The notes beneath the pieces were generated by a model. That model saw nothing but the letters and a program-made list of their open reading frames with translations. It ran no database searches and was not told the origin of the DNA. The position numbers were made by a program, and so were the translations under genes. A stretch of 64,000 bases of DNA from Girardia tigrina (taxonomy: Eukaryota), in NCBI GenBank assembly GCA_001938485.1, contig MQRK01232961.1, forward strand, positions 1 through 64,000, read 5' to 3'. The stretch's first letter is position 1; each line of letters starts with the position of its first letter. This document shows positions 2,610-53,070 of this stretch, in pieces.

Positions 2610-2972
2610 CATTTTCTGTAGAGACTCAATGAAACCATCGGCATTACATCTCTGATCCATCCAGGTAATCAAATTCTAGTACCGATTGTAGCCCGATTCG
2701 TCCTTGTCGTCATTCCAAAACAAAACACCGTGCATTTGTCTTGATATTCCAATATGTCTCACATTATTCAAACCGTCACCCTTCATTTCATTTAATATCT
2801 CTCGAATCGCTTCAAATATTTTGTCAACATTTTGCTCGGGATAAAATTGATTTTGATTAATAATCGTGGAATTAGTGTCTTTTATCGAAGAGTTCAGTAT
2901 TGTTTTATCTTTAGCATTGCTTAAAATAACCTTTACAGATTTCGTACCGATATCGATTCCGAGGACGTTCAT
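2610..2972 (-). pseudogene. SHPK: Sedoheptulokinase (FGGY carbohydrate kinase) 5' fragment, pseudogene
   Basis: MNVLGIDIGTKSVKV...EQNVDKI...HIGISRQMHGVLFW...Y*NLITWMDQRC. The FGGY motifs GIDxGT, GQMHG (here RQMHG) and TWxDxR lie in one frame across a single TAG at 2676-2678. Recognisable similarity ends after FIESLQK. Confidence 0.8.
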
Positions 2973-4093
2973 GCTGCTTGAAGAACGATATCAAAACACA
3001 AATATACCAAAAATATCAAATTTTGAAAGAAAAATAATAAAAATAACGCTGAAATTTTAATTGATAATTTGAAAATACATTTTTTCAATGGCGACTTTCG
3101 ATTATTTCAAAAACAAAATAAAGTTCGCGCCAAAAATTAAAATAACATTAATTCGGTAAAACAACAATGAAAATTTTGTCACAAAAAATAAAAAATACAG
3201 TTTTTTACCATTCGAATTCTCACAACGGTCAATCAGAAACTACCGGTATTAACATTGTTTTTTTTAAATCAAAAAGTAATATATTTATAAAAAATTCACA
3301 ATTTCTATCGATATTTAATTAACAGTTTTTTTTTCCAAATCAATTCGATCAATTTCATGTTTCGATGACAATTAAAATTTTTGAGTTTTCGATTTTGTTA
3401 ATAAGTCATAAAGGATTTTCATTCTGTTTTTTGTCAAATTTTTTAGATTCTGTAATTACCGATTCATTGTTTTGACTAGTGAAAGAAGTTAAATTTGACT
3501 TTGTTTTCAATTGAGAGATGGGGGTCATTTTCAGTTTTTTTGATACGCCTGTATTATCATTGATGTCAGAGATTTCCGAATTCATCCTCTCATTTAGCAT
3601 TTATTTTTTTAAAATTATTTAAATTAAAATTTATCGCGAAACACACACACATTTATATATAATATATATTTGTAATTATCAACAATAAGAAACGGAAGGA
3701 GAAAAAAAGTTTATGAATCATATTCTTAATAAAAACAGAGTTGTATAGGGAAGACTAATGTAAATAAAATCACGATTTTCCTTGGCAATTTTGCGGAAGT
3801 AATACGAATTATCTGAGATTTATTGATCAAGGAAAATAATATCGTTTATGACTTTAACCAGATAATTAATATAGTCACATTTTGAAGTTAGGTTCTTAAA
3901 TTATGATTGATTTGATTTTGTACAAATGAAAGATGACCAGGATGACGAACAAATCTCGATTCGTTTGACCGTTAAAACGATTTAACTAAAGAATTCATTT
4001 AAATAAAAAATCATTAAAAATAATAAATAAAATAAAATGTATATATATTAGATGATATTTTATTATATATAAATATGTGATTATCCTTACAAT

Positions 4094-16694: not shown

Positions 16695-17103
16695 TTATAT
16701 ATTTATATAAAGTTTATATTCAAATATATTTTCTTTATCCAATTTATATTTTTTTTCTTTATCGGGTAATGCGGTTTCATATAATATTAAACGTTAAAGT
16801 AAAGAAATAAAACGTTAAAAAAGTTCACTTTTAAGAATAAATATTTATGTTATATAAATTAGTAAATCAAAAAAATCTCTTTTTAAAACCATGATTTATG
16901 CGAATAAAGGTCTTTCAAAAATGGATTAACAAATTCTCAATTTTTAACAATTCAATAGATTTTGCTTCGATATTCCGGTTTTACAATTCGAACTAGTTGT
17001 GTGATCGAGTCAATTTGGTTGACAAAATATCCGGTCAATTAAGAAGTGTATTTGAATATGTGTTTATCTGCTGTGCTACTCTGTGATCATGATTGAATTG
17101 TTA

Positions 17104-18396
17104 TTAGCGTGAACAAAAGTGCCTTCCTTAAGAAACGATCTTGTTTCGCTACCAGTTTCGCCATTTGTCCGGGGTCCAACCATTGATTTTGTTGGTCTGG
17201 ATTACTGAAGTAAATCCACTTTTCATCGTAAGTTACAAGTCGACGGATGAAATGGTCATCGCGCGGATTTTCAAGCAATTTTTGACAAGTTTCAAAACGC
17301 TTTTCAGCTTGAATTTGTGTCAATTCATGAGACACTTCTCGACAATGTCTATTGACCTTGCCAAGAGCGTGAAGGTGTCGCACAATAAATGTTTAAGGAA
17401 AATCGAGTTCGGCCGACAATCTGCGAGTACTTATTGATGGATTTGTCTCGACGGCTTCACGAATTGCTCCGGAATCCACGGTGATAGGTCGGCCTGAACG
17501 TGCATTGTCTCCGTTGATGTCGCCTTCGTTGAACTTTTTGAACCAATTTTGTGCAGTACGATTTAAGGCCACATTATCGCCTTCAACTTCGCATATCTTC
17601 TTTGTTGCGTTGAAGCCCTGTAATGGCAAAAAATAACACGAATTTCAAAATTTTCCATGATTTTTCTAAAAGACTATAAAAATTAAATTAACGAATAATT
17701 AAAAGTTTTAATATATATTGTGATAGAGCAGTTCAAGAGCTTTAAAAACATATAGCACAAGTGTGTAAAATATATTTATTTAGTAATAAGAAACTATTGA
17801 ACAAAAAGACGTACCGTGTTTCACCGATAGTAAGACACCCCCGATTGTAAGACGTATCGGGAGTTTCAGAAGGGTCAGCTAATATAAGCCGTACCCCGAA
17901 AGTAAGACATATGTCTTACTTTCGGGGAAACACGGGGGATTTGCCTCCAGTGATGTGCGGTACAAAGAGTGGGGCTGGGGGTGCGAGCCGCACCCTGGGG
18001 GGGGTTCCACAGGATCCTAAGAGTGCAGATGTTTATGATGATATCCCAGAGAATGATGACATGGTTGTCATGGAATAAATTTGTCTTATATTCCAGTATT
18101 CCACTGTTCCTTCTTACCATTTTTCATTGTTTTACATGTTATGCAATGTTGTAACAAGACATTCTTGGCACTTCCTTTTATTAACCTGTTTTGGGGTGAA
18201 TACAATACTATTCAGGTTGTTAATAAATGTTAATATTATGGTTAAAACAAAAAATTCGACAATTTTTTTCCCAATATAAGACATACCCCGGAAGTAAGAC
18301 ATAGTGGGGCTTTTAGGGATAAAAAGAAAGTAAGACACTGTCTTACTTTCGGGGAAACACGGTAGAAAATACGAAAAGACTTTTGGTTCACCCTAA
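17104..18396 (-). mobile_element. Mariner element, internally deleted, interrupted by a MITE
   Basis: TIRs ttagcgtgaacaaaagt (17104) and ttagggtgaaccaaaagt (rc, ends 18396) with TA TSDs. Transposase pieces: NATKKICEV...RTAQNWFKKF...RSGRP...STRRLS and VSHELT...LVTYDEKWIYFSN. The coding sequence runs directly into the TIR, so the C-terminal half is lost. Confidence 0.9.
17814..18362. mobile_element. Tc2/pogo-like MITE nested in mariner
   Basis: TA-ccgtgtttcaccgatagtaagaca ... tgtcttactttcggggaaacacgg-TA, with multiple subterminal ccccgaaagtaagaca repeats. Removing it restores the mariner 5' end. Confidence 0.9.
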
Positions 18397-18769: not shown

Positions 18770-19445
18770 TTTTTAACTGAAAGTTATTCCAAGGTCGTAG
18801 GAAACAGCTGCCCAAACCGTTAATCCCGGCGATTTCATAGGTACACGAATCAAACGATGTTCATTCTCTTCAAAATAATAAAAAAAGATTATGCTTTCAT
18901 ACATGACCATTAAGGTAAAACGATGCCTCATCAGAAAAAATAATTCTTCCGCAAAAATTGATGCCATTTTCGTTGATTATCCAAGAACAAAATTCAATTC
19001 TTCGATCTGGGTCATCTTCTGTTAACTCTTGTTGAAAAGAAAACTTGAAAGACTTTACCTTTTCTTGCTTGAGGTAACGATGAACAGAACTCTGCGAAGT
19101 ACCAAGGACACGTGCAACCCATCGTTGATTTGCAGTATCGTTTTCTTTTACATACTGAACAACACTTTCTTTCATGTGTTCATCAGATGGTCTTCCTGAT
19201 CGCGGTTTTGTTGACAAATTCCCCGTTTCTTCGAATTTCTTCTTCCAATGCTGAACGGTTGTTCTCGGTGGCGGTTCACGTTTGAAACGCTCTTTAAAAA
19301 TTTGACACGCTTTTGTGCAGCTTTCATAAACGATTGCATGACTAGTGATGAAAACTTTATCTTTAATAGAAAATTCGACATTTCCACTTTCTTCAGCCAT
19401 TGTAATGGCAGTTGGCGCATTTAAATAAAAGTGAAAGTGCACAAA
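18770..19445 (-). mobile_element. Tc1/mariner-superfamily transposase N-terminal half (HTH plus first catalytic Asp), frameshifted
   Basis: PPRTTVQHWKKKFEETG...RSGRP...SSVHRYLK...QELTEDDPDRRIEFC...IIFSDEASFYLNGHV, then ...SPGLTVWAAVS. Confidence 0.85.
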
Positions 19446-19698: not shown

Positions 19699-21921
19699 AA
19701 CCTTTTTCTTTTCATGTCTTCAAGTTGTACTGCGTAAAAAAACCATGTCGTAATACATTTATATCATATTCAAAAAGTTTTACATTACATCGCAGTATAG
19801 TTCCATATCTTGAGACGACGACTTATGAATCGCATGGTATTTAAAATTCATTAAACGCTCTCATTAAATGAAAGGGTTGATTATATCCTCTAAAAAGATT
19901 TAGCAATATGATTTCATTCATTACTTTATGGCAGCACAAATATAATATATATTTATAGTGTAGTAATCAATCTGTTACTATTGTTTTATCCGCGATGATA
20001 ACTTCATCTCTGTTTCCATTTAAAAAATCGGCTTTCTATCAAAAATCATATATTACATCCATTGATTTATGAAACATATTTCCTTTGGTTTAATTCAATA
20101 CTTGGTTGTTTATATTTTATTGTGAATTGTAGGTATCATAATATCTGTACCAGTATTGAAAGAAGAATAACCGTATGGTTTTTGTAAGTAAGTTTGCTTC
20201 AAAATCATAGAATAAGAGCAAATCTTCACTATAAAAAACTCTGAAAGATCTTGTACATCATTTTATATTTTCAGTTTGCATGGGATTTAAATTACTGCTA
20301 ACCTTTTCTATTGTATTATTCTGGTATACGTAATTTCTTTTAAAATAAAATATATTTCCGGTTATGTTATTAAAATATTTCTTTCTTTTAATTTATCTGG
20401 TATACCTTACAACGTTACTGAAATATCCTTTTTTATTATATAAGCAATGTTTTCATTTACTATTTCATAATTAGTTCCTTTTATTTTCCTTTTAATAATT
20501 AAATTTCCATTTTTTCCAGGTTTAATAGTTGAGGACAGATGATCTCATCAATCTACTGAAATAATAATTCCAACGACAAAATTGAATTAAACATTAAATA
20601 CATTATTCCAAAAAAGTTATTAAAGACTGATAAATTGTCCACCAAATTTATTTAATATTAAAGCAATTCCAAACTCTCATTTTTCAATCCATAAAATATC
20701 AATTTAATAATTAATCTCATTAATGTAATATATATATATATATATATATATAAATATATATACAATATATACATACATGTAGGTCACTACATTAATAATC
20801 TTAGAATATTTTTAATCAAATATCGATTCTGAAAATCAAAGACTTAGAAATTAAAAAAGTAAAAGTATTTTGATTTTTTGATTTCGGCGACTCTTCATAA
20901 TTCTGTTTTGTGGTTTATTTATTGTTTTATATATAAATATATATTTGAAGCTTGATTTACTAAAATATAAATTATTTTATTTTGTTTAGACCAATAATTA
21001 TGTCTGTTTAATTAGATTTCAAAACGAATATTAATCGATTAATTATGTTATGTATTTTGTTTTGATAACCATTGAGATATTTTTTCAAATATTCTTCAAA
21101 GAATTTCATCTATCCGGTTCATAATTGAATAAATCCGGCATATATTCATATAAATATAAATAGGAAATATATCAATATAAACATTACATTGATATAAAAA
21201 TATAAAATATGATATAGTCATGCCAATAAACTTTATTCACTCAACGTGAAACATCCTTGGTAGTACTTGTTCAATTTCTAATACAAGATGAATTGAATAC
21301 TGACTTTTATTGGGGTTTTAATAGTCGTGATCTAAATAAAACACTATAGCAGAGTGCAGTTATACGTTAGATTTAGTAGAGAGTGAATATGGTCATTCCT
21401 TGGAGTTAAGAATATATTGTGGCTTGTGTAGTGACAACTATCTAAAATAAATATAGCCGAACTGAAGTGACAGGTTATACGATAATATATAAAATCAAAA
21501 CTAAAAATATTAGTATAAATTATAATTAACTATAAACAAGTAATAAACTAAAGTGCGAAAGACGTTTTGATCAAGATAACAATAAAAAGACAAGGGTTGC
21601 AATAATGCAAAAATAGCAATGGTAAAACATGATACTTAAATCAATAGGATATGGAACTACCAGATGGTTCTTATTAATAAATCCATTGAATTATATAAAA
21701 TTCTTCTCTATATTAAAGAAAGGAATATCTCGATTAGTCACTTGTGATTTTTGGAATGGAAGATTTTTTGATTGTGACAACTTACGAATTCTATCGACGA
21801 ACTGAGTATGTTTGTTAAGGATTGAAAATTAAATGTATTTTTGCAGTATTTGTCGTAGATGATTGTAGACTTGAAATCCTTTTTTTTAGGTTACCTTTTA
21901 TTATAATAAATTATATAAATA

Positions 21922-23108
21922 TGTTATGCCAAATTCATGAATTAGGCAAAAAAAATTGCTAAATTCGAGAATTAGCCATAAAATTGCCGAATTCACGAAT
22001 TAGGCAACAGTTTGCTGAAATAGTGTAATTGCCAAATTTATGAACTCCTCAATTTTTGCAAAATGCACTAACTATATGATAAATTTACATTTTAAAATGA
22101 AAATTTCTCGATTTAAAATAAAAGTATTTAATATGCAAAAATATCAATTGAATATAAAAAAAAACAATTTAATATGAAAAATATGTATTTAATATGAAAA
22201 AAATTCAATTTAATATGGGAAAATATCAATATGATATCAAAAATTCTGTATTTAATATGAAAAAAATATCAATTTATCATTGTGAGGAATATTTTTGAAT
22301 GGTGTTTATTGTGTGTTGTTTGGTATGTTGTTTTAGGATTCTGTTTCTCCCACCCAGATGGAGGATTGATATTTTAAATATTTTAAAACGTCGGGTTGTT
22401 TAATCAAGTATTAAAATTTAAATAATCACTTTAAAATTAAACTAATATTTCATAAATAATATTTTAATAATAATTTTCTTAAAATAAATAAAAATTATTT
22501 TAAATTTTAAGTATAAATAATTTTTATAATAATTAAATTATAATTTAAAGTATAAATTATTCTTGTAAGAATTAAATTGTAATTTAAATTTGTTTGAATA
22601 ATAAGACGTTTAAGAATATTATTAAAGATTATCAATCAAGAACGTTGACGTGCTACGCAAGTTTTACGGATAATTGTTCTAGTGACAATTCAAATTGTGA
22701 TATAAATAAATGTAAGGAAAACCAATTAATGTTCTTAATAATCATTAAAAATTATCAATTTAATATGAAAAAATAAATTAAATTTGAAAAAAATCTTGAT
22801 TTATTATGCAAAATAGATTCCAAATGTTAAATTTTTATTCATAGTTATTTTACCTTCTTCCTTGGTTGCAAGCTGAATTACAAACGTTTGTATTTTAAAA
22901 GCATTTTTCATATAAAATTGATATTTTTTCTTATTAAATACAATTTTCTTATTAAATCGATATTTTATTCAAATTAAATTGTTTTTTTTCATATTAAATT
23001 GATATTTTTTCATATTAAAATATAATCAATTTCATAATTGAATACAAAAAAATTTTAAAAAAATTGCCGAGTTCGTGAATTCAGCAATTATGCAAATTCA
23101 GCATAACA
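21922..23108. mobile_element. Unclassified TIR element with subterminal GCCGAATTC-like repeats
   Basis: Ends tgttatgccaaattc... and ...gcaaattcagcataaca. Repeated tgcc.aattc.cgaatt.ggca units lie at both ends, and aatttaatatgaaaa arrays lie inside in inverted orientation. Confidence 0.65.
22281..22740 (+). mobile_element. Solo LTR (family also at 57510-57931)
   Basis: Starts tgtgagg and ends taata (decayed taaca), with exact 5-bp TSD ATCAT (22276-22280, 22741-22745). Colinear with 57510-57931. Confidence 0.85.
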
Positions 23109-24461
23109 TATATATGTGCGTGTATAATCCATATTTAGGCATAAATAAATAATATAACGCTGAGCACTACAGTTGTTTCAAATTATTATTATTACGTGTA
23201 CTGTATGATGCCTTTGCTTATTGCATATTTTAGAAATATGAATATTTATATTCTCATTATAACTAAATTAACTAATAATTTTTAATATAAATTTTATCAT
23301 TTATTTTTTTGACAAAACATTCTTTTGTCAGTTAATAAAAAATAATTTCTCATTTTAATATTAAAAAAATAAAATCAAAATTAGACTTTATCTAAAAATA
23401 TAAATTTAATAACAACTTTTATATAATAACTACCCTTGTAAAAATCAAAAAGTGGAAAATTCATATAATTCAAGATTTTCTTATTGAAAAAGAAACATAT
23501 TATAAATGTCAATTAATTTAATTTATATGAATTCATTAATTTGTATTTATTACTCTTTTATAAAAGAAATATTTTCAAATCAAATACATAAATTTAAAAT
23601 ATGCAATTTGAATTTAATGAAACAAAATATTAAATTATTTTATTATTGTCTTTTCTGTGATAATCTAATCAAAAAGAATCTTTGAGAAAACAAACATACC
23701 AAAGAATAAATTTAATAAAATTTATTGAACAATAAAACATTCCCATAAAAATAATTTATTATGTAAACTGTCGTGTGATTCTATCAAAATTCACAATTTA
23801 TTGTTCAAAAAATAAATGATAAATGGCATCTTATGTAAAGTTTACAACGAAAAATAAGCACTTCAAAGAAATATATATTAATGAAAAAATAAAAAAGAAA
23901 TAGTTTACCTTTCTTCATCAGAAAAAGAGAGTTTAGTTTACAAGAACTATTATTGGCTAATAAAATTAATTAATTTTAAAATTAATTATTAACCAATAAA
24001 AATGATTTAATTTTAGTAATTATAATTTTTTTAAATATTTTTTTCACTATTATTTGAATTATTTTAATAAAGTCTTTTGACTAAAAACAATATTTTAAAA
24101 AATAATTTTTTAAATAAATTAATTACAAAAAAAAATTTTAACTTATAATTTACTAATTTTTCTCATTATGGTTCAATAATTAAAAGATTCCTAAAATTTG
24201 TTAAATATTTAAATTTTAATTAATAGATGAATGTTAAAATTTACACCTAGTAACAAACAATATTATTGATCGATTTGCTAAATTTTCTGTGTTCTACAGT
24301 ATTACTTCCATCCAAATTACGGTATTGTTCTTGGATTATATTATTATAGAAATATTTGAATTACATTTTTATATTTCAAAAAATAAGAATGTGAAAACTC
24401 AAGATGAAGTTTGGCTAAATTATATCAGAGTCCAATTTTTCATATATTTGTTATTAAAATC

Positions 24462-24584
24462 CTATAATTTTTTGGATTGGTTAATTTCTAAGCTATTATT
24501 CATTAAGTTATTATTCATTAGGTAACAACGGTACTCATTGGGTACACAAAATTTGTAAACTGTCACACTCCATAATTCCTTGCT
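24462..24584 (-). other. Candidate terminal exon
   Basis: Acceptor tttttatttcatag followed by the open frame SKELWSVTVYKFCVPNEYRCYLMNNN...KKL*. Confidence 0.3.
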
Positions 24585-24724
24585 CTATGAAATAAAAAGA
24601 AAACAATTCTCAAGTTTAAATAGAAAAAAAGAAATAAACAGAAAAAATGTATTTATAATTCAATTTGAAGAAAACAGAATTATAATTGTAAAAAAAGGAA
24701 ATTCACAAGAACAAACATGCGTAA

Positions 24725-25404
24725 AAAAATTAATAGTTTAAACATTGAAACCTGCTTTACACTTGGGTATACTCTAAGCTTACCTTACTCCGAGGGTTTT
24801 AAACACCTCAAGAATTCGATCTTGAAATCAATAAATAATATTTTAAATTTAAAAATTATTTCTCAATCATTTAAAGTTGAGAATATGTTTTGCAATAAAT
24901 CACATACTCCTTTAGGATTGTGTTCGGATATTGTTTATCAATACACATGTAATGGGTGCCAATGCCACATACATCGGAGAGACTGCCCGTCATCTCTGCA
25001 AAAGAGTCCAAGAACACAGTCAAAAAGGGGGAAAGAGTAATATTGCTGAGCATAAAGAAACGTGTAAATGTAATATGAGCATAAATGATTTTAAGATTTT
25101 GTGCAAGCATTTTAAAAATTATTGGGAGAGAGTGTCATGTGAAGCATTGTTCATAAGATCATGTGATCCTAAAATCAATGTTCAAACAGCACTCTCAACT
25201 AATTTGTTAAGAGTTTTCGATTAGACTTACGTAAGTGATTACATAATCATTCATTTCTTATATAAAAGCAATAAAAAAAAGAACATAATCAGTGATCTGA
25301 TGATGACGGTTAAACCGTCGAAATATATTATCATAAAATATATTTTTAAATGGCGTTTATTTGTTTTTAATTAAAAATTGCCATCTTTTTTCAAGTTTAT
25401 TTGT
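24725..25404 (+). mobile_element. 5'-truncated Penelope-like element with pLTR and 12-bp TSD
   Basis: LPYSEGF...NKSHTPLGLCSDIVYQYTCNG(fs)NATYIGETARHLCKRVQEH...NIAEHKETC...EALFIRSCDPKINVQ* is a GIY-YIG domain. It is flanked by aaacatgcgtaa at 24713-24724 and 25405-25416. Confidence 0.92.
25293..25333 (+). ncRNA. Minimal type I hammerhead ribozyme (PLE pLTR)
   Basis: tgat-CTGATGA-t-gacggt-taa-accgtc-GAAA-tata-TT-atca: stem I tgat/atca, perfect 6-bp stem II, palindromic minimal stem III, predicted cleavage after 25329. Confidence 0.85.
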
Positions 25405-27270
25405 AAACATGCGTAAGTTCGAATTTTTGTTTAAATTTTCCTTTCCTGCACAAAACGTGCTGATGAAATATCGATTAAGGAAAGGGGTTCAGTGTAAAAA
25501 AGAAATTCATAAATGTCTTAAAACCGCAGAATAATAGTTTTTCAGAACATAATTCTTGAATATAATTATTTAAATCAATTATCAATGGTTATAATGAACA
25601 AAATTAAAAAAAAATTATTAAAAAAGATCAAATACTTGAAGCATTAGATAAATACAAAACATATTTAAAATAAAAAAAGATAATTAATTTCTAAGCAATC
25701 TGACATTAATTATTTATTGTTCAAAAATTAGAAAATAATCGGAAACAAAAACTTAAGTATTAAATTGCAATTTTTTAAGCAAATTAAATATTTACCGAAC
25801 ATGTTCTACCAAATATTTTTAATTAAATATTCTTGAATATTTGTAAGGTACTTCTTGCCAGTTTTTCCATTGACTTTAGATGCATAAATATAAAGCCAAT
25901 GTTTTCATAGATGTTAATAGACTAATTTTTAAAACATAATTCAAAACCAACCGATTCATTCATTTTTATATTAATTATATAATAATATCCCTTAATACAT
26001 TAGTGGGTCACAAAGGATGGAATATTCCACACATGCTTGATGTTAAATTTATTAATAAATTTATTTTAATTAACATGTATAATTGTTCAATTTTTAAGAA
26101 GTTAAGTATAATTTCATTAAATATGAAGTTGTATAAAATCTTTTTGATTGGAAATAAAATGATAAGAGAAAGAATAATGAATGAATTTTAACTATCTTTC
26201 CTTCAAATATTATAATTGATCTTTATTTAATTCATTTCGATCATTCTTTTTGAATTTGGAATGTTTTTGAATGTTGCATCAAGGATATAAACTTTCATGG
26301 AAAATTGATAGTAATTTATTAAACTATTGATAAAATATTACTGGACTTCTTCTTTTAAACTTTTTTAATTCAACTCCAATGATTACAAACTAATGGGATA
26401 TCACATTACAGCCAGACATTTGATCTTATAGCTGAAAATTAATGCCCTTAGCACATTATACCTAAAAACGGGGGAACACAACTGAATCTATTACCGATCT
26501 ATTCGAAAAGGCGGTTTTTGGATTAAATTGAAAGGCAATTTTCTCTATAAAATATTATATTTTTCGTGTATTGTATCACGTATATTTTTATCATTGCAAA
26601 ATTAGTAAAATTTGACAACAAAACTATACTTTTTCGATGTTAAATACGATTACGAATATTATAATACTTAATATTTATTAATTATTCATACTGATTGTAT
26701 TACTTTAATTTCTTTTTGGAAAGCCTTATTATCAATTACCAAAAACGATCTTTAGATGAAAGATAATTATTTTTTAATAAATAATTAAATAAATTAATAA
26801 TTTCATCATTACATTAAAAACATCGAATTGCGTGATAAAAGATAATATCTTTTCATTTAATATTCTCTGGCAGCCATTTTTACGAAATACTTTCTCACGA
26901 TCAATTTTCTATTAAAGTTCTGTAGACAACGGAAGTTTATTCGGAAGGATTTGAAAATATATTTTATTTTCATTAACAAACTAATAAACTTAATAACTTA
27001 AGGAAATTTTATCAAAGAAGAATTATTGTTAATTTATTTACAAATAAAAATTAAAAGAAATAATTTTTTATTATATATTTTCTATTTTTGTTTCTTTATA
27101 TACCATTTCTTTATATCTTAAATTAATATGTATAATACTTATTTCTATTTAAATATACTTTGTAGATATTTATTTTGTTTGTTTTAATAGAAAATTTACT
27201 TGTATGTAATTTTAATATATCTTATCTATTGATTTAAATAAGTATAATCATACCAAAAAAATTTTTGGCG

Positions 27271-27631
27271 TACAAGCTTTTATAATTTGTCATATGTTTG
27301 CGGTTCTGTATCTATTTCACCCACTTCCCACATTTTTTTGACTGAATTATCAAAGCCTACTAGGTGAAAACCCGCTTTCTATTTGCATTTAGATGTAGCA
27401 AATTTCAAAGCCTACTACTGAGGAAAACATGAGAACGACACTTTAATTACTTTTTGAGACCAAACTAAAGGTAGTAGATGAGCAGTGACAGTGAAAAAGT
27501 GTATTGTCACCTAGAATACATCAGTCCTGAGAGTTTCATGTCGTTAGGTGAATGGGAAGTGGGTGAATTTTCGATCGCAAGATTTGATGCATCCAGACAG
27601 ACAAACAAATGAAGCGTACTTAAAGCTTGTA
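27271..27631. mobile_element. Non-autonomous inverted-repeat element, Helentron/DINE-like
   Basis: Terminal IR tacaagcttt/aaagcttgta, perfect internal 15-bp IR ttcacccacttccca (27316-27330 / 27553-27567), and a cagacagacaaaca microsatellite before the right end. Confidence 0.65.
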
Positions 27632-30600
27632 AAAAACAGAAATTCGAAGATTTTAAATAAAAAACATGACTGACAAAAATTCTATATCCATCATTAATAT
27701 ATAATTAAGTAATTAATAATAAATAAAGTAATTATTATTGTTCTTTATATTTTCCTTTCTTTTTCTACTTTTTTATTTATTTTTTTATTGTGGTCAAAAT
27801 AATGATTCCTTCAATTTAAGTACATCGTATTTAGTCAAAATAAATTTGCATTTCCCTTTCATATTGAAATATGACGGCGGAAGTTAAATGTATATAATTT
27901 TAGGGTACTGATTAGACAAAGTTTCATTTTCAATGCTTTGGTTCTCACAATTTCGAAATTCCTTGTCTTCCGTTTACTTAAATAATTTTAATCAAAAACA
28001 GATTATAATATATGTATGGAAAATTTTACTCAAATTATATATTTATTATACAACAACATTCAAACAAATTTTCCAACTATTTGCTTAAGTAATAATTAAT
28101 CAGCTGATCTTTATTTTCAAATAATTTTTCATCCATCAAATCAAAAATAATATTCATCTTTTAAAATTTTAAATGAAAATATTTATCAAAATGATTTTAT
28201 ATATATTTAATGTTTTAAAAATATTTATTGTTTAAATTTGTTTTTTTACTTTAATCCTTTTAAATTTTTTTTTCTAATTTTGCGTTGTTCTATTATTTTA
28301 GAAAGAATAAAAATACGTTAATTTTTTTATTTTTTAATCATATGAATAAATTAATTTAAAATTTGAAAATACATTTTTGCAAATATTAACATTTTTTAAT
28401 CGGATTTAAATTATTTTAAAAATACTGTTTTATTTGTTATATGTTTTGATCACTCATTTTTTCTATCAAAATACTATTTTGATTCAAAATAAATTTATAA
28501 ATAATGTCCTTAAATTCAAATTTAAAATACTTAATTAATTCTAATTAATTTTTAAAATTATCAATTTGATTTTAATTCAGAATAATCTGTTTTAAAAATA
28601 TTAGAATTTTGATCAGCGAACCAAAATTAATAACCTCCTCAAAATTTAAAAATTTAACATTATAATATTTTGTTACAGTTTAACTTTTTAATAAGAGAAA
28701 CCAAGAAAAATCTATATATTTTAAATTATATAATAAAGGTCAAAACATAGTAGTCTAAAACATAGTAAAATGTCAAGATTAAGAAATACCACAAATTTAA
28801 AATACAAAAATGAGATTAATAAAATTAGCTTTTCCACACTTTTACTAACTTATTTCTTTCTAAAATAATTCTTTAATCAAACCAAAACAGAACTTAAAAT
28901 TTGATCTTTGATCCTGAAAATTCGATATTCATTTATTATGATCGCATTGCTTTTCTCCGAAATCTAAACAATTCATAATTTCTTTTTAATTATAAGTACA
29001 TAATCTTTATAATATATTCGAACCATTTTGTTACTTAAGATGATTTACAAACAAATATCCAAACGAACAACTGTTTGATTTAGGATCTTTCCAGCTGTTA
29101 GAATATTTATAAAAATCCCTCTAATTCGCACTCCGTTTTCTTGTTAGCACATTATTTTCGAATTATACTTATTTTCAACTATGATCTTTATTTCTTTTTT
29201 TCGGTTACAATATATCATTCAGGCAAATTATTGCATCCCTGTCAGAAGAAAATGTTAATTTTTAAGAAATGATCAAAGTCTGAATATGAATTATCTTCTA
29301 TTTATAAAGGAAGTATAAAATGAAGTCCTAAATTCATATATTCATAATAAAATTTATATGTGATCATTCTTTAGAACAGACTTTATTCTATACGAAATGA
29401 CTGTTTAATGTAAATCTTTGACTAAACAATAAAAATTAAATTATAGCTATAGACCCAAACTGCCGTATCTCCAGTATTTTTAATATTGATTTTTTATTGT
29501 TCGGATATTTTTTTCTCTCAGGAGAAAGTCAACGATTTCTGATTCTTTTGGTTTCGGTAAATAAACAGAAAATAAGTTCAAACTCGAATAGTCGGAGAAC
29601 ATTTTCCTTGGAGACATTCTCGAAAACAGCATAGCGATAATATTAACACCAGAACAACTCTGTTCTGGAAAACGACCCAAATCGGCAATTCTCCGCTCCA
29701 GAAGTAAAAGAAAAATAACTGTTCTTTAATCTTAAAGAGTCATTGGTTGTTTGATTTCTGCTGGAGTACTGATCACTTAATTTGTCTTGGTGATAAATCA
29801 TCAATCACAGAAATTTTTATTGGAATAAATAGACCTTCGATGTTCCTATTAATACATTCTTGACCAAAAATAAATATATCATCTGTAAGTTACGGGATGA
29901 TTCCAATTATATAACGTTTTGTTATCGTTAATGAAAAGTAGTCACGATTTTATGAATTTTGGATATTCATTTCTTTTTCTAACTTGCAGTTAATTTTTAA
30001 CAATATTTTTATTGATTTTTTTTATTAATTTTTTATATAGTAATATATTATATATTATATATTATACATTATTATTATTATATTATCACACCTTTTAAGT
30101 GGTCATTTATATATATGTGTGTGTCTATATAAATACATGTATATATTAATGAGCTCCATATTCAAAGTAATGATCAAAACATGACATACTTTGGGTTGTG
30201 CATATGGTAAGAAAATATAGATGTATAGGAATAATTTTATGAAGTTTTTATGGAACTTGATTAAAAACATTTTCCTCAACTCATTTTTTAGCAATTTTTT
30301 GAAATTTCTTGGGAAGATTCTCTATTCTGTCAACTTTCAAAGAATGTTGATGTCTCCTAGAGTTATCATTGAAATAGTTATTATTTATCTGTTAATTTCT
30401 ATAAAACAGTTCTTTGATTCATTGATTGCATGATGATTGCATTTTTTTATTATTGTTTGAATTTTTTAGTGAAATAATTTTGGTAAGAATTGAGAATATG
30501 CCTTTGTCGATGTTTTTCTGATCAAAAAAACTTTGAACAATACGTGACCACTCACAAACTCGTCAATACTTACTCTAAGTGCACAAGAATACGACCACCC

Positions 30601-32830: not shown

Positions 32831-34531
32831 CATTTTTTAATGAATTATAAAGAAATTCAACCAAAAAATACTTCTTGTTTTGTTAATTTCTATAAAAACA
32901 TTCTGACGATATTTCAAAAGACATAAATTTAAAATGCATAAAACATCGAAAGATTACAATATTGTCTACTCAACTTTACTCAAATAAAAATACTCAATTT
33001 TATGTAATAAATTCAAAATCATTAAAAAACCCGAAATTATTTTTTATTAATTTACGTAAATTTAACATTTTACTATTTTAATATGATTTTGAATTTGATT
33101 TAATTTTGAATTTTCTTTGTTTTATAATTGGTATAGAAGGATATTCATTTTTTGGTATTATTTCGTTTTGTAAATCATACTAACTTTGAATATTTTTTTC
33201 ATATTTTTAATTAATAGTAAGTTGAAAAAGTGTCTGAATAGATGTTTATGTACGCAATGTATATTTCAGTTCTGAAAATTTACTGTTGAGTTACCATCAT
33301 TTTCTGAAAGATATATACATTTGCTTTTTTTGTAGTACTATTTTTGTAGTACTTTTGCTTATTTAAAAATAAATTTAAAAAACATTATTTTTATTCATTA
33401 AATTAAAAAAATGGGAACTTGATTTTAAAAACAAAAACACGCCATTTGAAAAAAAACATTTATTTTTGCAATAGTACAATAGAACTTAGGGTTTATATCA
33501 CTAACTCGTTTTTTATATATAAGTGTTGCCAGAGGTTTTTTTTATTTGGATGTAGGTTTTCTTGCAGCTTTTATGTTTCGAAATTTTGAAATTGCTTTAT
33601 TATAATATTAATTAGCGATTATAATTTTTAATTTGACGTCTTTCTCTTTGAATGATCACGAATCAATTGTTTTTCAATATTCTCATAATCAGAGTCTTAT
33701 CCAAGTTTGATTGGCAAGATCGCTGAATAATGTTTATCTAGGTATATGTTAAATAACCAGAATAAGAATTAAATTAGGAAAATAAAAAATATTAATTTAA
33801 ATAATAATAATTATTGATAAGCTTCAATCTTGATGAAAATGTATAAGTAAAAACAAAACTTATCCATTTAAAATACATTTAGAGACAATATATTGTAACA
33901 AATCAACTGTAATCCTCAGATCACTGATTAATAAGCCTCCTCCGACTGAACAGATAACTGAGTATTGTAGAGAATACAGTACCAGCATTGGCGTTCAGAG
34001 TAGTGAGTCATAGACTTTGTGTCAGGTAAAATTTAAAAAATTGACAATACAGAGCCTACTAACTTTCTCGCACGGCTTTAGATGCCAGAATGCGAGTTTT
34101 CAGTGCATGGGCATGCTCCGGTTTTCCAGTCCGAAAGGATCAGCCATGATCCCTCTTACTATGGTTCTGTAATCTTTGACTGTGTAAACATATTTCTTAC
34201 AATGAATAAAGAGACACAGAAATATTCACACATCAGTTGTATTACTTAACCAAAAGTCGAGAACGACACTTGGTATTACCCTTGAGTAAAACGGTTTATT
34301 GTATTCTTTTTTTGTGCAATAGACAAAAAGATGTACTTGAGACAAAGAGAGTATTAAACTCTGAAATTACCTCAAGAAATATAAAAGTCAGAGACCGGAA
34401 AAAGCAGTTGATGAAAGAGCGTTTTGCCCGTGATATGTTCTGGTCATTTGGAAAATCTGGTTGAATACCATGGAATGCTTGTATGATAGAGGAACACTCA
34501 ATACTGACGCAGAAGTCAAACACCTGATCAA

Positions 34532-34947: not shown

Positions 34948-35559
34948 TTAATTTGAATCGCAGGCTATAATTATTGTAACTTACTCATTTCACAACGCAA
35001 CAGCTAACTGATTGCAGCTACCACATGTCGTCAATATACTGCCGAGGTAGTGATTATTAATTGATTTTTCCCTGTATATGAAATGCAAAAATAATGATAA
35101 TGTTGTTGATTTCATCAAATCAGGTTAATCGAAAATTCCCAATAAGCTCGTTGAGACTACCGAATGAACATTGATTTTATGGTAACGTGACATAAGGAGG
35201 AAGAGAAAAGAGCAAGAAGCGACATTGTGAAAGAGCTGAAAATAATTTGATTTGATTTATATGATTCAGGCAGTGAATTTAATTATTGTTTATGTATTAT
35301 TATAGCCATCACTAATTCTAATAATTTAAATAAAAGTAAGTTTACTTCACAGAATAAGAAATTTTAAAAATATTTTCATTTTGATGTTAAAAATACAATT
35401 TTAAATTTGAATAATGTAAATTTATCTAAAGATTAGATCAATATGTTAAAATATAAACCTAAATATTATTCAATAAAACCAAAATTTAATAAATTGTTGT
35501 GATCTGTGAAAAAAATAATCAATCAAAAGTTAGGTGAGGTGAACTATTAAGTTTTGAAA

Positions 35560-38570: not shown

Positions 38571-40215
38571 ACAAATTATTCCCACTGAAATACCATACTA
38601 TTGGTCCATCTGGTGTATAGAGCGCTGTAAATTCTACTAGCTTATTCTTGATTTACTCTAAGCTTTGAGGTATTAATGATTGTCTTTACTGATTGTTTTT
38701 TGGATGTCTTTGATCTAAAATCTTTAGTTCAGTACTATGCAGATTCGAAAAATAATTAACATATTTATCTTCCTGATTCAATTTAACTATAATGTGACGA
38801 TGAATTACGGGATAAATTTTATATATGTAAATATAAAAATAAAAGCGCTCTTTATATAGTAATATGAAATGTTAAGAAATTATTAAACAATTAACACATG
38901 AAAATAAAAGTTACGAAAATTCAAGAATAACATGGAAATTCGAAAAATGTTAAACACACTGTTTTTCTCTTTACAAAAAGTTTCAATCATTTCTCGAAAA
39001 AAATAGTTACCATTTTTTGTAAATTAAATAAAAAATTATTTTATATTTATAATAAAAAAGAAAAAAGTTACACTTAGATATATTTATAGTAAAGTACATT
39101 ATGGGTATATTTTTGTAAATGAACTCTGTAAATTTTTGTGTTGAGAGGCAGCAGTGAGCCAAAAATAAATGTCTAAAAATAACAAAATTGAATAAATAAT
39201 TGAATCAATAATTATTAATTGAATCGAAAAATTTGGATTTGGAATTAGAAGAATAAGAGGTTTCCTAGAAACCATCATCACTTCACCATTTCATTAGCCA
39301 ATTCCCTCAATTTCCAATCAGTGAAAGAAAGTTCCGAGATCCCGAATTATTATTATCCGAATGAAATAATAATTAAACAATTCAATTTTTTCCAACAAAG
39401 ACGAAAATTAAATAGTAATTGTAAACTATAATTATTCCGTCTTTCATCAACCAATCCCTTCAATTTACAACCAGTCAATAATAAAAAAATCAAATATCTA
39501 ATTGGAGACATTCATAATCAAGACGATCTGAGAAAGGCAATAACCTAACAATTCAGTTCTAACGAAAAATAAGGCAAGTAACGTATATTTCTTTAATTTA
39601 ATTGATTTAATTTCCGAAAATTATAATATGTTAATGATGAGTTGAAGTGTATTTGTTAAATGGTCGATGTAGTTCAAGATATAGAGTTGTCTCTCATTCT
39701 TTCCGATTCTAGTTCGAAAGTTTTCCTATGCTCAGCAATATTACTCTTACCACATTACCACGGGCAGTCTCTCCAACGTGTGTTACATTGCAACCATTAC
39801 AAGTATACTGATAAAGCACGTTCAAACAATAACTCGTGGGAGTAGAGGATTTATTTAAAATTATATTTTCAACTTTATCGAACTGAGATAAGATTTTTAA
39901 ATTTAAAAGATTATGTGTTGCTTTAAGAATATAATCATTTAAATGTTTGAATCCTTCAGAGTAAGCTGAGCTTAATACGTACCTCGGTATGAAATAATTT
40001 TTAATCTTAAGATTCTTCTCGACTTTATCCTTTTTTTTAATCCATAGGTGAATTTATTGTCTTAATTTGTGCTCTTTCAATTATTTTGCCTAGAGTCTCA
40101 CAAGTGACTTTCTGAATAAAAGACTAAGAATATTTATTGTTATTCAACAATTTACTCGATGGTTCAATTTTTTTATTAGATTTAGTAAAAGCAGAGTAAA
40201 AGGGTCAAGAACGAT

Positions 40216-40483: not shown

Positions 40484-43400
40484 TCGGAAATACTCCTGGT
40501 CACAGCAATTCCAGACCGGTATACAAAAGGCAATGACGTGGAATTATTCATCACCAAATGCAAGCGATTCTTTGAGCTAACGAACATCAGAGAGAGCATG
40601 AAAGCTATCATTGTAAAGACTCTATTGGACAACGAATCAATTAAAATATACGAAGAAGTCGACATCAGTATAAAAAATTTCGATGAAAAATTGCGGAAAG
40701 CGTTTTCGCAAACTTCGAGATTTGAAGATATGGTGGAAATATTAAATTATCGACGGGGATCAGAACCTTTAGAAAATTACTTCAAAAATATCAAAAAATT
40801 TGCAGCAAAATTGGCGTCATACAAATGGAATGAAGTAGAACTGGAGAAAGAAATCCTGCAACATTGTCTGGACGATAAAGAAATTAAAAAAAAGAAGTTG
40901 AAATGCGCGTTAAAAAGAAATGGAAGATATCAAAGAAACAATGAAAAAATGGATACGATCTAAATGAAATACGACAAAATCAAAGCGATGGGTGAAAATA
41001 AGACGGGGAAAACGAAATAAACGGAAGAATACTGACCGTATGCCAGACGCACATAGAGCAATGTACTTCAGAGTCACCCACCAAATAAGAGGCAACCACC
41101 CAAAACCGGTCATTTAACGCGGCAAAGTCTGAGAAAAACAAGACAATGCTGGACTTGCAATTCAACCGGCCACTTGAGCAAAGATTGCCATACACGGAAG
41201 ACTCAAGTTTGCTACGGATGCGGAAGGACCGATCATATTTGACGAAATTGTTTAATCAAGTGCTCAAGGTGTGAAATAAATAGCTACAATGCGAATGACT
41301 GCTACACAAACCCGACAAAAAGGCGTGAAACTCTACGGTACAGAGAATCAGAGTTGAACAGCCGGCCGATATATTCGAACAGATATCGAGAAAGAATTTC
41401 ACAGGTGACCCGAATCGTCACAGACAGAATGAGGAAATGTACAACAGTGGAAGACGATATCCGGAAACTGATTACAAGAGAGGACTCAGGAGAGGAAAAG
41501 AAATTGCTTTGATCGAGATGGAGGAAGCTTGAAACGACGATTGCGATACTGATAGCCAAAACAGTAACGGCCCGACTAGAGAAGAGTCAATCGGAGCCAT
41601 GCAGTAGGTAATTCTATGTGTAACCATTCATGTATCAGTAGTATATTTTATACTTATAATAAAGTATAACGATAGTATAATAATATAGCTGGTAGTACAA
41701 TATTCAAGTATAATAAAAGTAATTTTGTAAATAATTTTAATAAAGATTATAATGACTTATGTAATAATATTAATCATAATGTGAATATGAAAAACGACAT
41801 AGGACCGATGAAAGACTGCAACGATAAGGATTTACAGAAGAAAGAAACAAGTCAGGCAGAAATTAAAATTGTTAATTTTTTTTAAATAAAGAGAGACAAA
41901 CGGAATCTGCGAAATCAGGAATACGACAACAAATAAAACACTGGAAACTAGGACCACGGAGATCATATCGTACGACAAAATGCAAGACAGACCGAGATTA
42001 AATGTGAACATTCACGGCATGTATGTGGATTGTTTATTGGATACAGGTGCGAGAGTCAATGTCATGAGTCCGGACATAGCAAACCACATACCGGGTGCAA
42101 AGATAGAACCTTCAAACGACAAGTTGAGATGTGCAAACGACAGCAAATTAGAAGTGTCGATCGGCAAAAGAGAAGCGAAAATCATATTTGTGGTTGTAAA
42201 GAATATAAGCCCAGCAGTGATCGCTGGAATTTATATGCAGAGACAACTAGGTATCGAATTACAATGATTGACATAACACTTGACAAACCAGAGGAGTTTA
42301 TTTGCGACATTGAGGCAAAATTTGGACAAAGAATAACGAATGAGGACAGTATGGAAAAAATAAGGATGACTATAGACCTGAACAAATCTCCTCGATTGAT
42401 GGATATAATTTCCAGAAACAGGGGTGTTTTCATGGCGAATAAATGGGATATACAAAGCTAATAACTCATAAGATTGTTAACAAAGGTGAACCCATAAATA
42501 TGAAACCTCGGAGACAGCCGATGCATTGATACGGTAAAATAAAAGAAACAATCAAGAACCTGTTCGACAATGGAATCATTCGGAAGTATAAATCCCCTTG
42601 AAATACACCATTAGTATGCGTGTGGAAGAAAGAAAGTGCAGATGTGAGATTATGTTTAGACTTCCGACAGCTAAATCAAATTACTGAAAGACAAGCCTTT
42701 CCCATGCCAAATGCGGAAGAGATGATGGATACCTTACACGGGACAAAGTATTTCCATACGATAGACTTGGGTAACGCATTTTATCAGATCGAACTAGACC
42801 CGGAGTTACAAGAAAAAACAGCCTTTTCGACAAAATCGGGCCAATTTTGTTTCACAAGATTGCCATTTGGAATATCGGCGGCCCCCGGTACATATCAAGA
42901 AGTTATGTCGAAAATACTCGCCACTTTAAAGAGTGGGGCATCAATATACTTACATGACATCATAGTGGCAACCGAGACGTTAGATGAACACTATGCAGTC
43001 CTAGAAGAAGTTATCAAGAGAGTGGGCGACGCGAGACTCCGTTTGAACCCAGAGAAGTTAAAATTCCTGAGAAAAGAAGTCAGATATCTAGGAAATATAA
43101 TTTATATATATGAAATACAGACAGATCCAAGCAAAATAGACGCTATCAGACCGCTCACCAGACCTAAATGCATGAAGAGTATTCGAAATTTTCTTGGAAT
43201 CTGTAGTTACTACAGATGATTTATTAAAGACTATGCAAGATAATCCAGAGCCCTGGAAAGTATGTGTGGGAATAATCAGGCGAACTAGTCTGGACAGATG
43301 CCTGTAAGACAGCTGTTGACGAAATGCAGAAAGCTTTAATGGAAGCCCCGATACTGACGTTCCCAGATTTTAAGAAATAATTCATATTAGACACTGACGC

Positions 43401-44918
43401 CACCTTTGATACAATTGGGGCGGTACTGTCTCAAACAGATGTTTTAGGACGGGAATTCGTTATCGCGTACGGGTAAAAAACGATGAATAGCCATGATAAA
43501 GGAAATTGCATAACCAGAAAAGAACTTCTGACTGTATACTATTTTTGTAATCATTTCAAGCATTATCTGTACGGAAAACGATTCGTCGGACCACAAGGAC
43601 AGACCACAAGGCCATAACGTTTATGATGAATAAAAGGAAACCAATCACGGCACAGTTTCAGACTTGACACAACTATTTCAGCAGTTTAGACATTGACATG
43701 CATTTCAGGAAAGGTTCACAACACGAGAAAGCAGACATGTTGTCAAGAAAAGATTGTGGTATGTGTACACAATGTTTGATGGAGCATGAAGACGCCAAGA
43801 AACACAAAATGAAAACACGGATATTAACGATGTCTCCATTAAAAAAGTATCTCATACTGGCAGGAAAATGACAAGGATATCGAGAAAATTAAGAAGTCAG
43901 AAGACGGGGGACGGTTTACCGTCAAGGATGGAACAGTCTATACGGAAGACGGAAATATACCAGATAACAAAAGAACAGAATTTATTACATACATCCATAA
44001 ATTATTATGTCATGCAGGTGCGGAAAAAACTGACAAATACATCAAGAACAATTTTGACATGAATACAATGGGGAAAACCGTAAAATATACGATTGAAGGC
44101 TATATTTCATGCCAACAGACAAAAACACTGACAACATCAACGAAAGAAGAAACAGTAAAGATACAGACAGATGAACCATTCGAGAAAATTTTCATTGATA
44201 TCTGCGGGCCTTTTAGAGAAACTTTAAAAAATGAAAAATATATTAATGCTATTATTGATCACTTCAGTAAATACATAGTTCTGACGCCTTGTGCAACGCA
44301 AGAAGAAGCCACGCTTGTAAACATCATCAATAAGAACTGGATTATGAAATTTGGCTCACCTTAAGAAATACATGTGGATTGTGGAAAAAGCTTCATATCT
44401 AAGAAGATGGCAGACCTAGCGGAAGAAGTAGGTATCACCTTAATATTTTCCAGCACACACCACCACAATACTAACAGAATCATAAAAAAGGCAATTCAGA
44501 ATGATACGGGATATATAAATGCTTCGATAAAAGACAGAGACAAAACAAATTGGGCTACATTGCTTCCTGAAAAAGAATTTAGTTTGAACGCCACAGTACA
44601 GAAAACGACAGGTTTCAGTCCCACTGAAGTAGTATTTGGAAGGCAGATTAACCGTTCGGGTTGGTTACCAATGAACAAGATGCCACCGGCTGATATTATA
44701 AAAAAATTAGATGGAAACAAACAAAGAGCACTGAAATAACACGACGTCATTTTCAGATAGAGAAGGGTGGTTGGATAAAGAAAGAGATTCGAGAAAAGCA
44801 CCAAAACAAGTACGAAGGTCCATATACAATTATAGACCAAATCCACGATAGGAGCTACATAATTCCTAACTCCGACAACTAAGTAGCCACTGGTAAAGTT
44901 TGAGAAATTAAAAATCTT

Positions 44919-47333: not shown

Positions 47334-48339
47334 TTTGATTCAAATAAATTCGATTGTGAAAATATTCGCAAATAAAAGTTAAAAGTTTTTATAATAAGTC
47401 ACATCTCAAAATTATTAAAAAAATGTCAAGAAATAATTATTTTTAAAATTTACCGAAAATGAACCAATAAAATTTTGATTAGCCATTTATAATATTATCA
47501 AATCAAAATGAAGAATAATAAATAATATTAAAAAATACTAGATAATATAATGTATACAAATAATGATAAAAATAAATAAATTCAAATATTAAAGAATTGT
47601 GAAAGAAAATATAAATTAATTTTTTTTTAAATTTTGTTTATCCAATTAACATTTTTATCAAATATTTTTTTCTAATTATTTTATTTGTTTTTTTATTTGA
47701 AAAAAAGGATGACTTAATGATTATTACTTATAATAAAATTATCCACTAATATTAGATATGCTGAAAATCATTTAATACTTAATAGAACAAAAATTTATCA
47801 CAAAATAAATGATTAGAAAATCTGAAAATTATTATTAAATCATATCTTATATTATTGTATTTATAATTTTATATCTCTTTTATGCAAATAAAAATTTTCT
47901 GTTTTTATATGTATTTTACATTTGGATATATTGCTAATGAAATACGTTTCCAATTATCTCAGAAAAAAAGACAAATCTTCTTAAAGATATAGCAGGAATC
48001 GTTATTTCAAAATTAAATATTTTAGAACCAGTTCCGATTTTGATGCAAATTATGTTTTAGAATTAAAAAAGTGTTCATGATGAAATAAAAACTTAATCTT
48101 AATTTTATTTCTGAACCTGATAAAACTAAAGTTTGTACAAAGTAATGTCATTTGCAAGTGAAAAAAGATTAAATTAAAATTTCTAACCCCCAAAAAGAAT
48201 TATTAATATAATGAGAACAATTGAAAATAAAATTTAAATACGAAATCTATAAAAAATAAGTTTTGAAATGAAAGTTTAAATAAATTTGAAAAAATTGAAA
48301 TTTTTTTTAAAATTAAAATTAATAAGCTAATTAAATTAT

Positions 48340-48860
48340 TTAAAATTGTTTATTAATTTCGACGGAATAATCGTAATCTTCAGAACAACTGGTTTTTTTA
48401 AAAAAGAAATGTACTTATATACTGCCGAAATGATTATACGTCATTAATATATCATTTAAAAACCCTCAATAAAGTTGTCGATAGTGCATTTTGAATGGTT
48501 ATTTTATGATCCAAAATTTATATATAACGCTTTACATAATTTTTCAAATGAATGCACAGAATTTTAAAATTATGGGTATTTATGTCCCCTTTACAATGTC
48601 TACTATGTACATTTACTTCCACTTTTCTAACGATTGTGTTCATGGATTCTCTTACAGTGATGACAGTCTCTCCAATTTATGTGGTATTACATGCATTATA
48701 TATATTTTGGTAAATGAGGTCCGAACACAATCCTAGTGGTGTTGGAGATTTATTGCTAAACATACTTTAAAATTTTTTGATACGGGAAATTATTTTTAAA
48801 TTCTTTTAAAAGTAATATTGCTGGGCTTGCTAAATATACTATAGGGGAAAAATAAATTAA
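48340..48860 (-). mobile_element. PLE 3' fragment (GIY-YIG plus pLTR)
   Basis: PLGLCSDLIY...ACNTT*IGET...HNFKILC...KITIQNALSTTLLRVFK*, followed by a pLTR. Confidence 0.8.
48346..48388 (-). ncRNA. Minimal type I hammerhead ribozyme, stem II partly decayed
   Basis: ttgtt-CTGAAGA-t-tacgattattccgtc-GAAA-ttaa-TA-aacaa: intact core, 5-bp stem I and palindromic stem III. Confidence 0.7.
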
Positions 48861-49899: not shown

Positions 49900-50240
49900 T
49901 ATTTACTACATCAATAATAACGGTGAATATGTAGATCGAAGTCGTTTTGGACTGGAAAAGATTTGTCTATTGTTTGCCTATAAACTCAAACCTCCGAATG
50001 GTTTCTATCTGTTGCGGGGTAATCACGAAAGTCAGGACGTAACGAAAATCTACGGGTTTTATGATGAATGTAAACGTCGTTATGATATAAAATTGTGGGA
50101 AACGTTGGTCAATATGTTTAATTATCTACCGATTGCGGCGGTGATTGAAGACGAGATCTTCTGTTGTCACGGAGTTGAAAGACCGATCGATACTCCATTG
50201 GAAGGACCTCTAATTGATTTGTTGTGGTCAGAACCGANGG
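49900..50240 (+). pseudogene. PP1-like Ser/Thr phosphatase (PPP family) fragment, intronless with deletions
   Basis: [19 protein letters not shown]...FYLLRGNHE...[17 protein letters not shown]...[22 protein letters not shown]...DLLWSEP. It lacks the GDxHG motif and the C-terminus, and has a deletion after HG. Confidence 0.88.
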
Positions 50241-50309
50241 ATACGGACGTTTGTGGTGCCGAAAATGTCGGGTATATATTTATATATATTTGCATATTAT
50301 ATATATATA

Positions 50310-53014: not shown

Positions 53015-53070
53015 CAACACTGTTAGGATTATGCTCGGATCTCATTTACCAATATACATGTAATGGGTTT
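53015..53070 (+). mobile_element. Tiny PLE GIY-YIG fragment
   Basis: LGLCSDLIYQYTCNG. Confidence 0.7.

Follow-up and report, generated by a model that had tools for sequence, protein, structure and literature searches.

Does the hammerhead ribozyme motif carried by a Penelope-like element (PLE) in Girardia tigrina still cut its own RNA, and what would such a ribozyme do for its element? The question arises at positions 24725 to 25404 of the window, the whole 64,000-nt stretch of contig MQRK01232961.1 that was analysed, where a sequence-only reading had proposed an intact minimal hammerhead, perhaps still self-cleaving, in the pLTR of a TSD-flanked PLE. Our best explanation, to which we assign a probability of about 0.8, is that a truncated and frameshifted 680-bp fragment of a high-copy PLE carries a minimal type I hammerhead at its 3' end, that this motif is a passenger copied from uncut RNA and would cleave little or not at all, and that in the active parent it likely governs the mRNA 5' end and the start codon.

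The insertion and its parent family

The insertion is made up of the following features.

24713..24724 (+): left TSD AAACATGCGTAA, 12 bp; its last 1-2 A are common to the element
24725..25404 (+): Penelope-like insertion, 680 bp, 5'-truncated, with one hammerhead and without RT (sibling alignments)
24725..25224 (+): remnant linker and GIY-YIG endonuclease (EN), frameshifted near 24960
25222-25224 (+): EN stop TAG, 68 nt 5' of stem I
25405..25416 (+): right TSD AAACATGCGTAA; its first bases may be common to the element end

The 12-bp word AAACATGCGTAA sits flush against both junctions, which bears out the claim that a TSD flanks the element. Sibling copies (median identity to the window insertion 96% in 52 alignments) align with the window from 24724 to approximately 25401-25410 and then run upstream into RT, so that the window copy is a 5'-truncated fragment; a non-autonomous element with a fixed 5' end at 24724 was rejected because the siblings carry on into RT. 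The EN remnant is divided between two frames, and a GIY-YIG match is absent when the window's two EN pieces are searched alone; sibling L055 matches PF01541 with an E-value of 2e-5. Instead of an intact ORF between two pLTRs, the window copy has a frameshifted EN and no RT and, since it also carries a single hammerhead, it has neither a pLTR pair nor a dimer partner in cis. The description of the locus as a PLE therefore stands for its derivation and not for its integrity, what survives being a frameshifted 3' fragment; likewise, its location in a pLTR is correct in the sense of a 3'-terminal repeat unit, although no second copy is present. Type I hammerheads within PLE-derived sequence are also a feature of non-LTR retrozymes, in the accessible part of bioRxiv 10.64898/2026.07.22.740005, but the locus has no tandem array and keeps EN coding sequence, making it a truncated PLE rather than a retrozyme.

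Both RT (PF00078) and GIY-YIG (PF01541) were found in siblings, and in L118 a 465-aa frame reads from RT into EN, giving a single ORF with a C-terminal GIY-YIG. Siblings L111 and L154 show a partial tandem, and the PLE traits of 5' truncation, inverted pieces, an optional 30-40-nt tail and a TSD are all found. Sibling translations inspected by eye contain SKFDKGNG (DKG) and TCNGC..EH..EH (CCHH in EN), and the linker finger is absent. Because the available text of PMC8557442 gives the DKG motif, CCHH in EN and the lack of a CX2-5CxxC linker finger as traits of the Penelope/Poseidon clade, the parent family looks like Penelope/Poseidon by its motifs.

TSDs were surveyed in the 40 sibling insertions that were usable out of 57, the other 17 having been dropped for contig ends or N. 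Where an insertion includes an inverted piece, its junctions share a word of at least 10 bp in 16 of 23 cases, against 1 of 17 for simple insertions (control 5/116). Priming of reverse transcription from both nicked strands would give this pattern. The window copy belongs to the small number of simple insertions that do have a TSD. TSD-like words around the siblings (L002-L060) are 10-15 bp long. The Penelope of Adineta vaga likewise has TSDs on inverted-end copies and none on a simple partial tandem, as far as the accessible part of PMC3846280 describes them, but these are 8-10 bp in length rather than 10-15 bp, and the window copy differs in having a TSD without an inverted piece. Neither an empty site nor a paralogous flank was found, the right flank being single-copy, and 8 nearby short frames gave no Pfam match that would mark a host exon near the insertion.

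The window also contains at least 8 older PLE fragments that are approximately 70% similar to the 24725-25404 copy.

2-488: older PLE fragment
33832-33930: older PLE fragment
35126-35256: older PLE fragment
39719-40014: older PLE fragment
48278-48802: older PLE fragment
52141-52454: older PLE fragment
52955-53068: older PLE fragment
61269-61580: older PLE fragment

Those at 33.9, 48.4 and 52.2 kb retain decayed hammerheads, and all hammerheads in window fragments other than the 680-bp insertion are decayed.

The hammerhead motif and its genomic copies

Re-reading of the letters at 25293-25333 reproduced exactly the motif, complete core, stems I and II and palindromic stem III that had been placed there, and the distance of about 70 nt given from the GIY-YIG stop measures 68 nt. 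The parts listed below the whole motif were read from the letters themselves.

25292..25334 (+): minimal type I hammerhead, whole (sequence, descriptor scan, covariation)
25293-96 (+): stem I 5' strand UGAU
25297-25303 (+): core CUGAUGA
25304 (+): extra U, between A9 and G10.1
25305-19 (+): stem II GACGGU/UAA/ACCGUC (arms 25305-10/25314-19), perfect 6 bp
25320-22 (+): GAA
25323-28 (+): palindrome AUAUAU (stem III)
25329 (+): U17; predicted cut after U25329
25330-33 (+): stem I 3' strand AUCA

Both boxes, C3-A9 and G12-A15.1, are intact in this copy, and stem I amounts to 5 bp (25292-96/25330-34) once G25292.U25334 is counted. Helix II is long (6 bp) and helix I short; in the majority allele stem I has 3 bp and a mismatch, and it is A25333 that gives the longer, 5-bp allele, which is carried by 3 of the 41 top siblings and by 419 exact copies genome-wide. 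The G10.1-C11.1 pair is present, and GC in 68 of 68 aligned rows, its G and C having belonged to the selecting pattern. As proposed, the triplet before the predicted cut is AUU, an NUH triplet, and U17 is found in 41/41 aligned siblings; private damage at the cut site was ruled out by exact counting, the variable base being 25333. In the available text of PMC4209133, the minimal hammerheads of PLE pLTRs share with the window copy the type I topology, the CUGANGA/GAAA core, the extra nucleotide between A9 and G10.1, the G10.1-C11.1 pair, a long stem II, a short stem I and a small palindromic stem III, and they likewise number in the thousands, for the most part as single copies left by truncated PLEs. 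The 6-nt palindrome is closer to the Drosophila/rotifer variants than to the loop-less form in that text, from which our families A-C and F differ, as compared by text, in their fixed U17 (AUU).

A sceptic might hold that the motif is a by-product of AT-rich coding sequence that arose by chance and has no kinship with ribozymes. A loose hammerhead descriptor run over both strands of the 64 kb gives a single match, the 25292-25334 motif, which is weak evidence alone since 11 of 100 Markov simulations yield at least one match. The suggested check with Rfam hammerhead models also failed to recover the motif, cmscan of 20000-30000 at E<=10 returning 5 chance matches and none to hammerhead families. 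With this chance rate and no Rfam match the single locus is not self-proving, and the motif region is also coding. The genomic copies nevertheless speak strongly against chance. The 41-nt motif has 1,543 exact copies genome-wide and hence at least 1,543 copies, and degenerate patterns gave 7,891 matches for related families (0 with the reversed-pattern control) and 13,497 for further families (101 with the control), so that more than 20,000 matches stand against about 100 in controls. Moreover, palindromic stem III is perfect in six families, in three different sequences: AUAUAU in 70/76 copies of family A (that of the window copy), 45/48 of B and 19/21 of C, ACAUGU in 37/42 of D and 8/8 of F, and ACGCGU in 19/21 of E. 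The genome-wide pattern matches comprise at least six families, with U at position 17 in A, B, C and F and C in D and E, and (TA)n often terminates the family D and E copies.

Covariation was scored in 68 distinct copies, drawn from families A, B and C with a few strays besides; the set represents about three related lineages rather than 68 events, and its cells are not independent. The score for stems I and II is 0.311 against 0.166 in shuffled alignments (0/500), with slid controls at or below 0.172; 84% of cells are paired against 76% after shuffling, and changes on both sides are seen in 107 cells against 39. Pair 1.1-2.1 is UA in 30 copies and CG in 28, and stem II contains pairs that are AU in 47 and GC in 15, and CG in 45 and UA in 13; the outer two pairs of stem I are poorly conserved (28/68 and 42/68 unpaired). 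The families encode MTVKPS, MTVDPS or MVENPP, and because compensatory changes in stem II are non-synonymous, selection acts on the pairing itself and not through the protein. The covariation anticipated for stems I and II is thus present across three related families and marks a genuine minimal type I hammerhead; together with the palindromes in six families it refutes the chance origin, to which we give a negligible probability. Judged from its sequence, and with the descriptor, the covariation and the features in PMC4209133 in agreement, the motif is a hammerhead of the published PLE kind, as had been claimed, and an ordinary new example among minimal hammerheads already published.

A likely start codon and promoter-like sequence

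The core of the ribozyme contains two AUG triplets in one frame.

25303..25305 (+): AUG formed by A9-U-G10.1, likely PLE ORF start codon (frames in siblings)
25300-02 (+): second AUG, same frame (sequence)

In the window copy the frame from the A9 AUG closes after 23 codons. In the partial tandem L111 the terminal repeat leads directly into the ORF, and the A9-U-G10.1 frame is open for approximately 249 codons; among 22 motifs translated from 29 ORF-start loci, 9 rows (8 distinct) are open for 100-245 codons, and the remainder are mostly 3' or inverted copies ending in flank. The conserved extra U is likely, on the evidence of these frames, the middle of the PLE ORF start codon, in which case the cut would fall after codon 9. 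The motif had been described as invisible to the ORF track; with a likely start codon in its core, it is not purely non-coding. Such an overlap has already been published for PAc (Poseidon, Anolis carolinensis), in which the ORF begins at stem II, the cut falls approximately 26-27 nt after the ORF start, RT begins within the ORF, approximately 100-120 nt from its start, a tail is optional and targets are AT-rich (PMC11167929), all of them as in our family. Unlike PAc, the window copy is the dead 3' remnant of a family that is AT-rich and of the invertebrate type. The extra U does not serve as part of a start codon in every family, since the A9 frame of family D ends at codon 14-18; 80 extra stretches (81 motifs) held no ORF-start copies of families B-F. 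Family D copies (e.g. L124 and L131) have an AUG within the ACAUGU palindrome, adjoining the cut site, that opens a frame to the element end.

Between the EN stop and stem I lie several promoter-like elements.

25227..25246 (+): octamers TTACGTAA (25227-34) and TTACATAA (25239-46) (sequence)
25259..25268 (+): TATA-like box TATATAAAAG, approximately 30 nt 5' of the putative initiator
25289..25293 (+): initiator-like TCAGT, predicted start A25291

We take TTACGTAA and TTACATAA to be putative bZIP-like sites, of which 1-3 are found in 56/60 family A copies. TATAWA stands 26-36 nt 5' of the A in TYAGY in 55/60 copies of family A, 8/9 of B and 8/9 of C, against 5/185 sites in the window background. 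These motifs predict a TATA/initiator-like promoter directly upstream of the hammerhead, with a spacing kept in three families. The pLTR of Adineta vaga Penelope similarly holds a putative TATA, an initiator and the first ORF codons, with a TATA-initiator gap of approximately 20 bp in the accessible part of PMC3846280 as compared to approximately 30 nt here.

The same sequence could be read as an intron of approximately 60 nt that runs from GTAAGT (25231) to a 3' splice site in TAATCAG before stem I, so that splicing, and not the choice of start site, would unmask the ribozyme core. GTAAGT is present in 54/65 and TCAG in 62/64 scored family A copies, and in D. virilis Penelope, whose internal promoter lacks a TATA and is accompanied by an intron (PMC2377424, accessible part), the intron end abuts helix I (PMC4209133, PMC2377424, likewise in part). 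However, families B and C have no donor at the homologous place and yet keep the TATA-initiator spacing, and GTAAG is half of a palindrome, CTTACGTAAG. A search for spliced genomic copies gave 0 matches, which counts weakly because PLEs retain introns. We consider the intron quite improbable, and weaker than the promoter reading.

Cleavage and the template for insertion

The promoter-like sequence bears on folding, because AUCAG at the initiator is complementary to the CUGAU of the core. In the predicted fold of the window copy these two segments pair and mask one half of the core, and a second structure covers the other.

25320..25346 (+): predicted 10-bp alternative hairpin GAAAUAUAUU / AAUAUAUUUU, covering GAAA, stem III and the cut site

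GAAAUAUAUU is predicted to pair with a second AAUAUAUU downstream, and the 10-bp hairpin is predicted in family B as well and not in C. Under folding models, which score neither the tertiary core nor help from protein, stems I and II come out 5.3 kcal/mol worse than the alternative fold, the probability of the first stem I pair is at most 0.03 in all predicted folds of the window copy, and the AUAUAU duplex contributes -0.8 kcal/mol. When the RNA is started at A25291, U4-A6 are predicted to be freed, with GAAA still paired; for U4-A6 in family A, a start at the initiator A lifts the predicted unpairing from 0.02-0.05 to 0.87-0.93, and the trend is similar for U4-G5 in family B and weak in C. 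In published systems, a single S. mansoni minimal hammerhead did not cleave and dimers cleaved little (PMC4209133, in its accessible part), and PAc cuts only with its protein (PMC11167929). Eight of nine Xenopus dimers did not cleave, and one cut. Appreciable cleavage by the lone window copy is therefore unlikely on these models, and the suggestion that it may still self-cleave finds no support, as there is no tandem partner, predicted folds mask both halves of the core and published monomers are inactive.

Cleavage might be rescued if the window copy were transcribed and paired in trans with sibling RNA through AUAUAU, cutting appreciably at 25329/25330. Its core bases are all intact, stem II is a perfect 6 bp, the 5-bp stem I is the longer allele, the promoter-like TATA and initiator motifs are intact, and more than 1,500 siblings make a partner in trans conceivable. 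Family-like sequence is also present in runs recorded (2) or guessed as RNA, but these are silent on the window locus, and the 21 runs with such sequence are all contigs, which show no RNA ends. Against this proposal stand the absent cis partner, a palindrome duplex of just -0.8 kcal/mol facing an alternative fold approximately 5 kcal/mol better than stems I and II, U17 in place of the most effective GUC triplet (PMC2238771), and the inactivity of published monomers and weakness of dimers. The available portions of PMC11875169, PMC5314366 and 10.1101/2022.01.19.477025 hold nothing usable on U17 rates. We regard cleavage in trans as distinctly improbable.

Insertion ends bear on what the ribozyme does in the family. 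Among 74 usable siblings, none has its 3' end at the cut site (+27), the lowest being +39; the ends cluster near +97 to +111, with most true ends from +72 to +114 and a few tails beyond, while values at +64 are spurious, caused by a run of N in the copy used as reference. Of the 29 ORF-start loci, 7 extend past -145 and 1 is cut short by a contig end; in the other 21 the mapped 5' breakpoints are scattered from -131 to +114, with 1/21 at +28 (L172). The L162 piece terminates at +27. In this small sample, insertion ends show no enrichment at the cut site, and ends of siblings as fossils of cleavage were rejected since they are not piled up there.

The function of PLE hammerheads is called unclear in the accessible text of PMC8557442. 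In the model of Cervera and de la Pena, hammerheads cut tandem precursors to unit-length RNAs, re-ligated circles serve as RT templates, and ligation rejoins the AUG to the ORF. Selection on ribozyme structure, as seen in the covariation, and the existence of partial tandems (L111 and L154) fit this model. Copies in the genome continue without interruption through the cut site, as a re-ligated circle would equally predict. Nevertheless, insertion ends are not enriched at that site, and PAc inserts from unprocessed RNA, its catalytic mutants inserting normally in vitro (PMC11167929). We consider circles as templates unlikely for this family.

Our preferred reading is that the family terminal repeat would be a promoter-plus-5'-end module, with bZIP-like sites, a TATA box and an initiator that precedes the AUG by approximately 12 nt. 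Where repeats form a partial tandem, the mRNA would begin in the upstream repeat copy, just 5' of the ribozyme. A cut after codon 9, for which a partner RNA and the element's protein would likely be needed, would take away the cap and AUG; it would thus act as a brake on translation and would not be what produces the template for insertion. Uncut RNA would be reverse-transcribed from a point approximately 70-110 nt 3' of the cut site, by which the window copy would have acquired an intact hammerhead before being 5'-truncated and inserted at a staggered nick, giving its 12-bp TSD. In PAc, the cut is not needed for insertion, and RNA-seq ends at the cut site are absent (PMC11167929). The predicted folds would also allow a translational off-switch gated by the start site, although we hold it to be rather doubtful. 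Since UCAG is the reverse complement of catalytic CUGA, the initiator would hide the core in read-through RNA (the 3' copy and RT template), and RNA started at the initiator would free the ribozyme, which with the element protein would cut off cap and AUG after codon 9; because the second hairpin still hides GAAA in families A and B, this switch would need a chaperone.

The window locus itself matters little, being a dead copy with thousands of others like it. The role of PLE hammerheads could usefully be tested in the family: approximately 180 nt of its sequence bring together the promoter, the ribozyme, the start codon and the sites where RT starts, compensatory variants occur naturally in three families, and the positions of the insertion ends speak for uncut RNA as template.

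Other features of the window include a broken LTR-retrotransposon pol at 41890-44739 (+), with protease, RT and integrase pieces in separate frames, and Tc1/mariner-like transposase remnants at 17087-17392 (-), 18897-19445 (-) and 61967-62353 (+). Host-like exons encode an FGGY kinase N-terminal domain at 2676-2990 (-) (E 2e-12) and a calcineurin-like phosphoesterase at 49784-50548 (+) (E 3e-18). Two copies of an unclassified repeat of approximately 450 bp (78-91%) lie at 22260-22722 and 57489-57912, and 21927-22066 is a hairpin-rich stretch with short GCCAAATTCATGAATT-like repeats.
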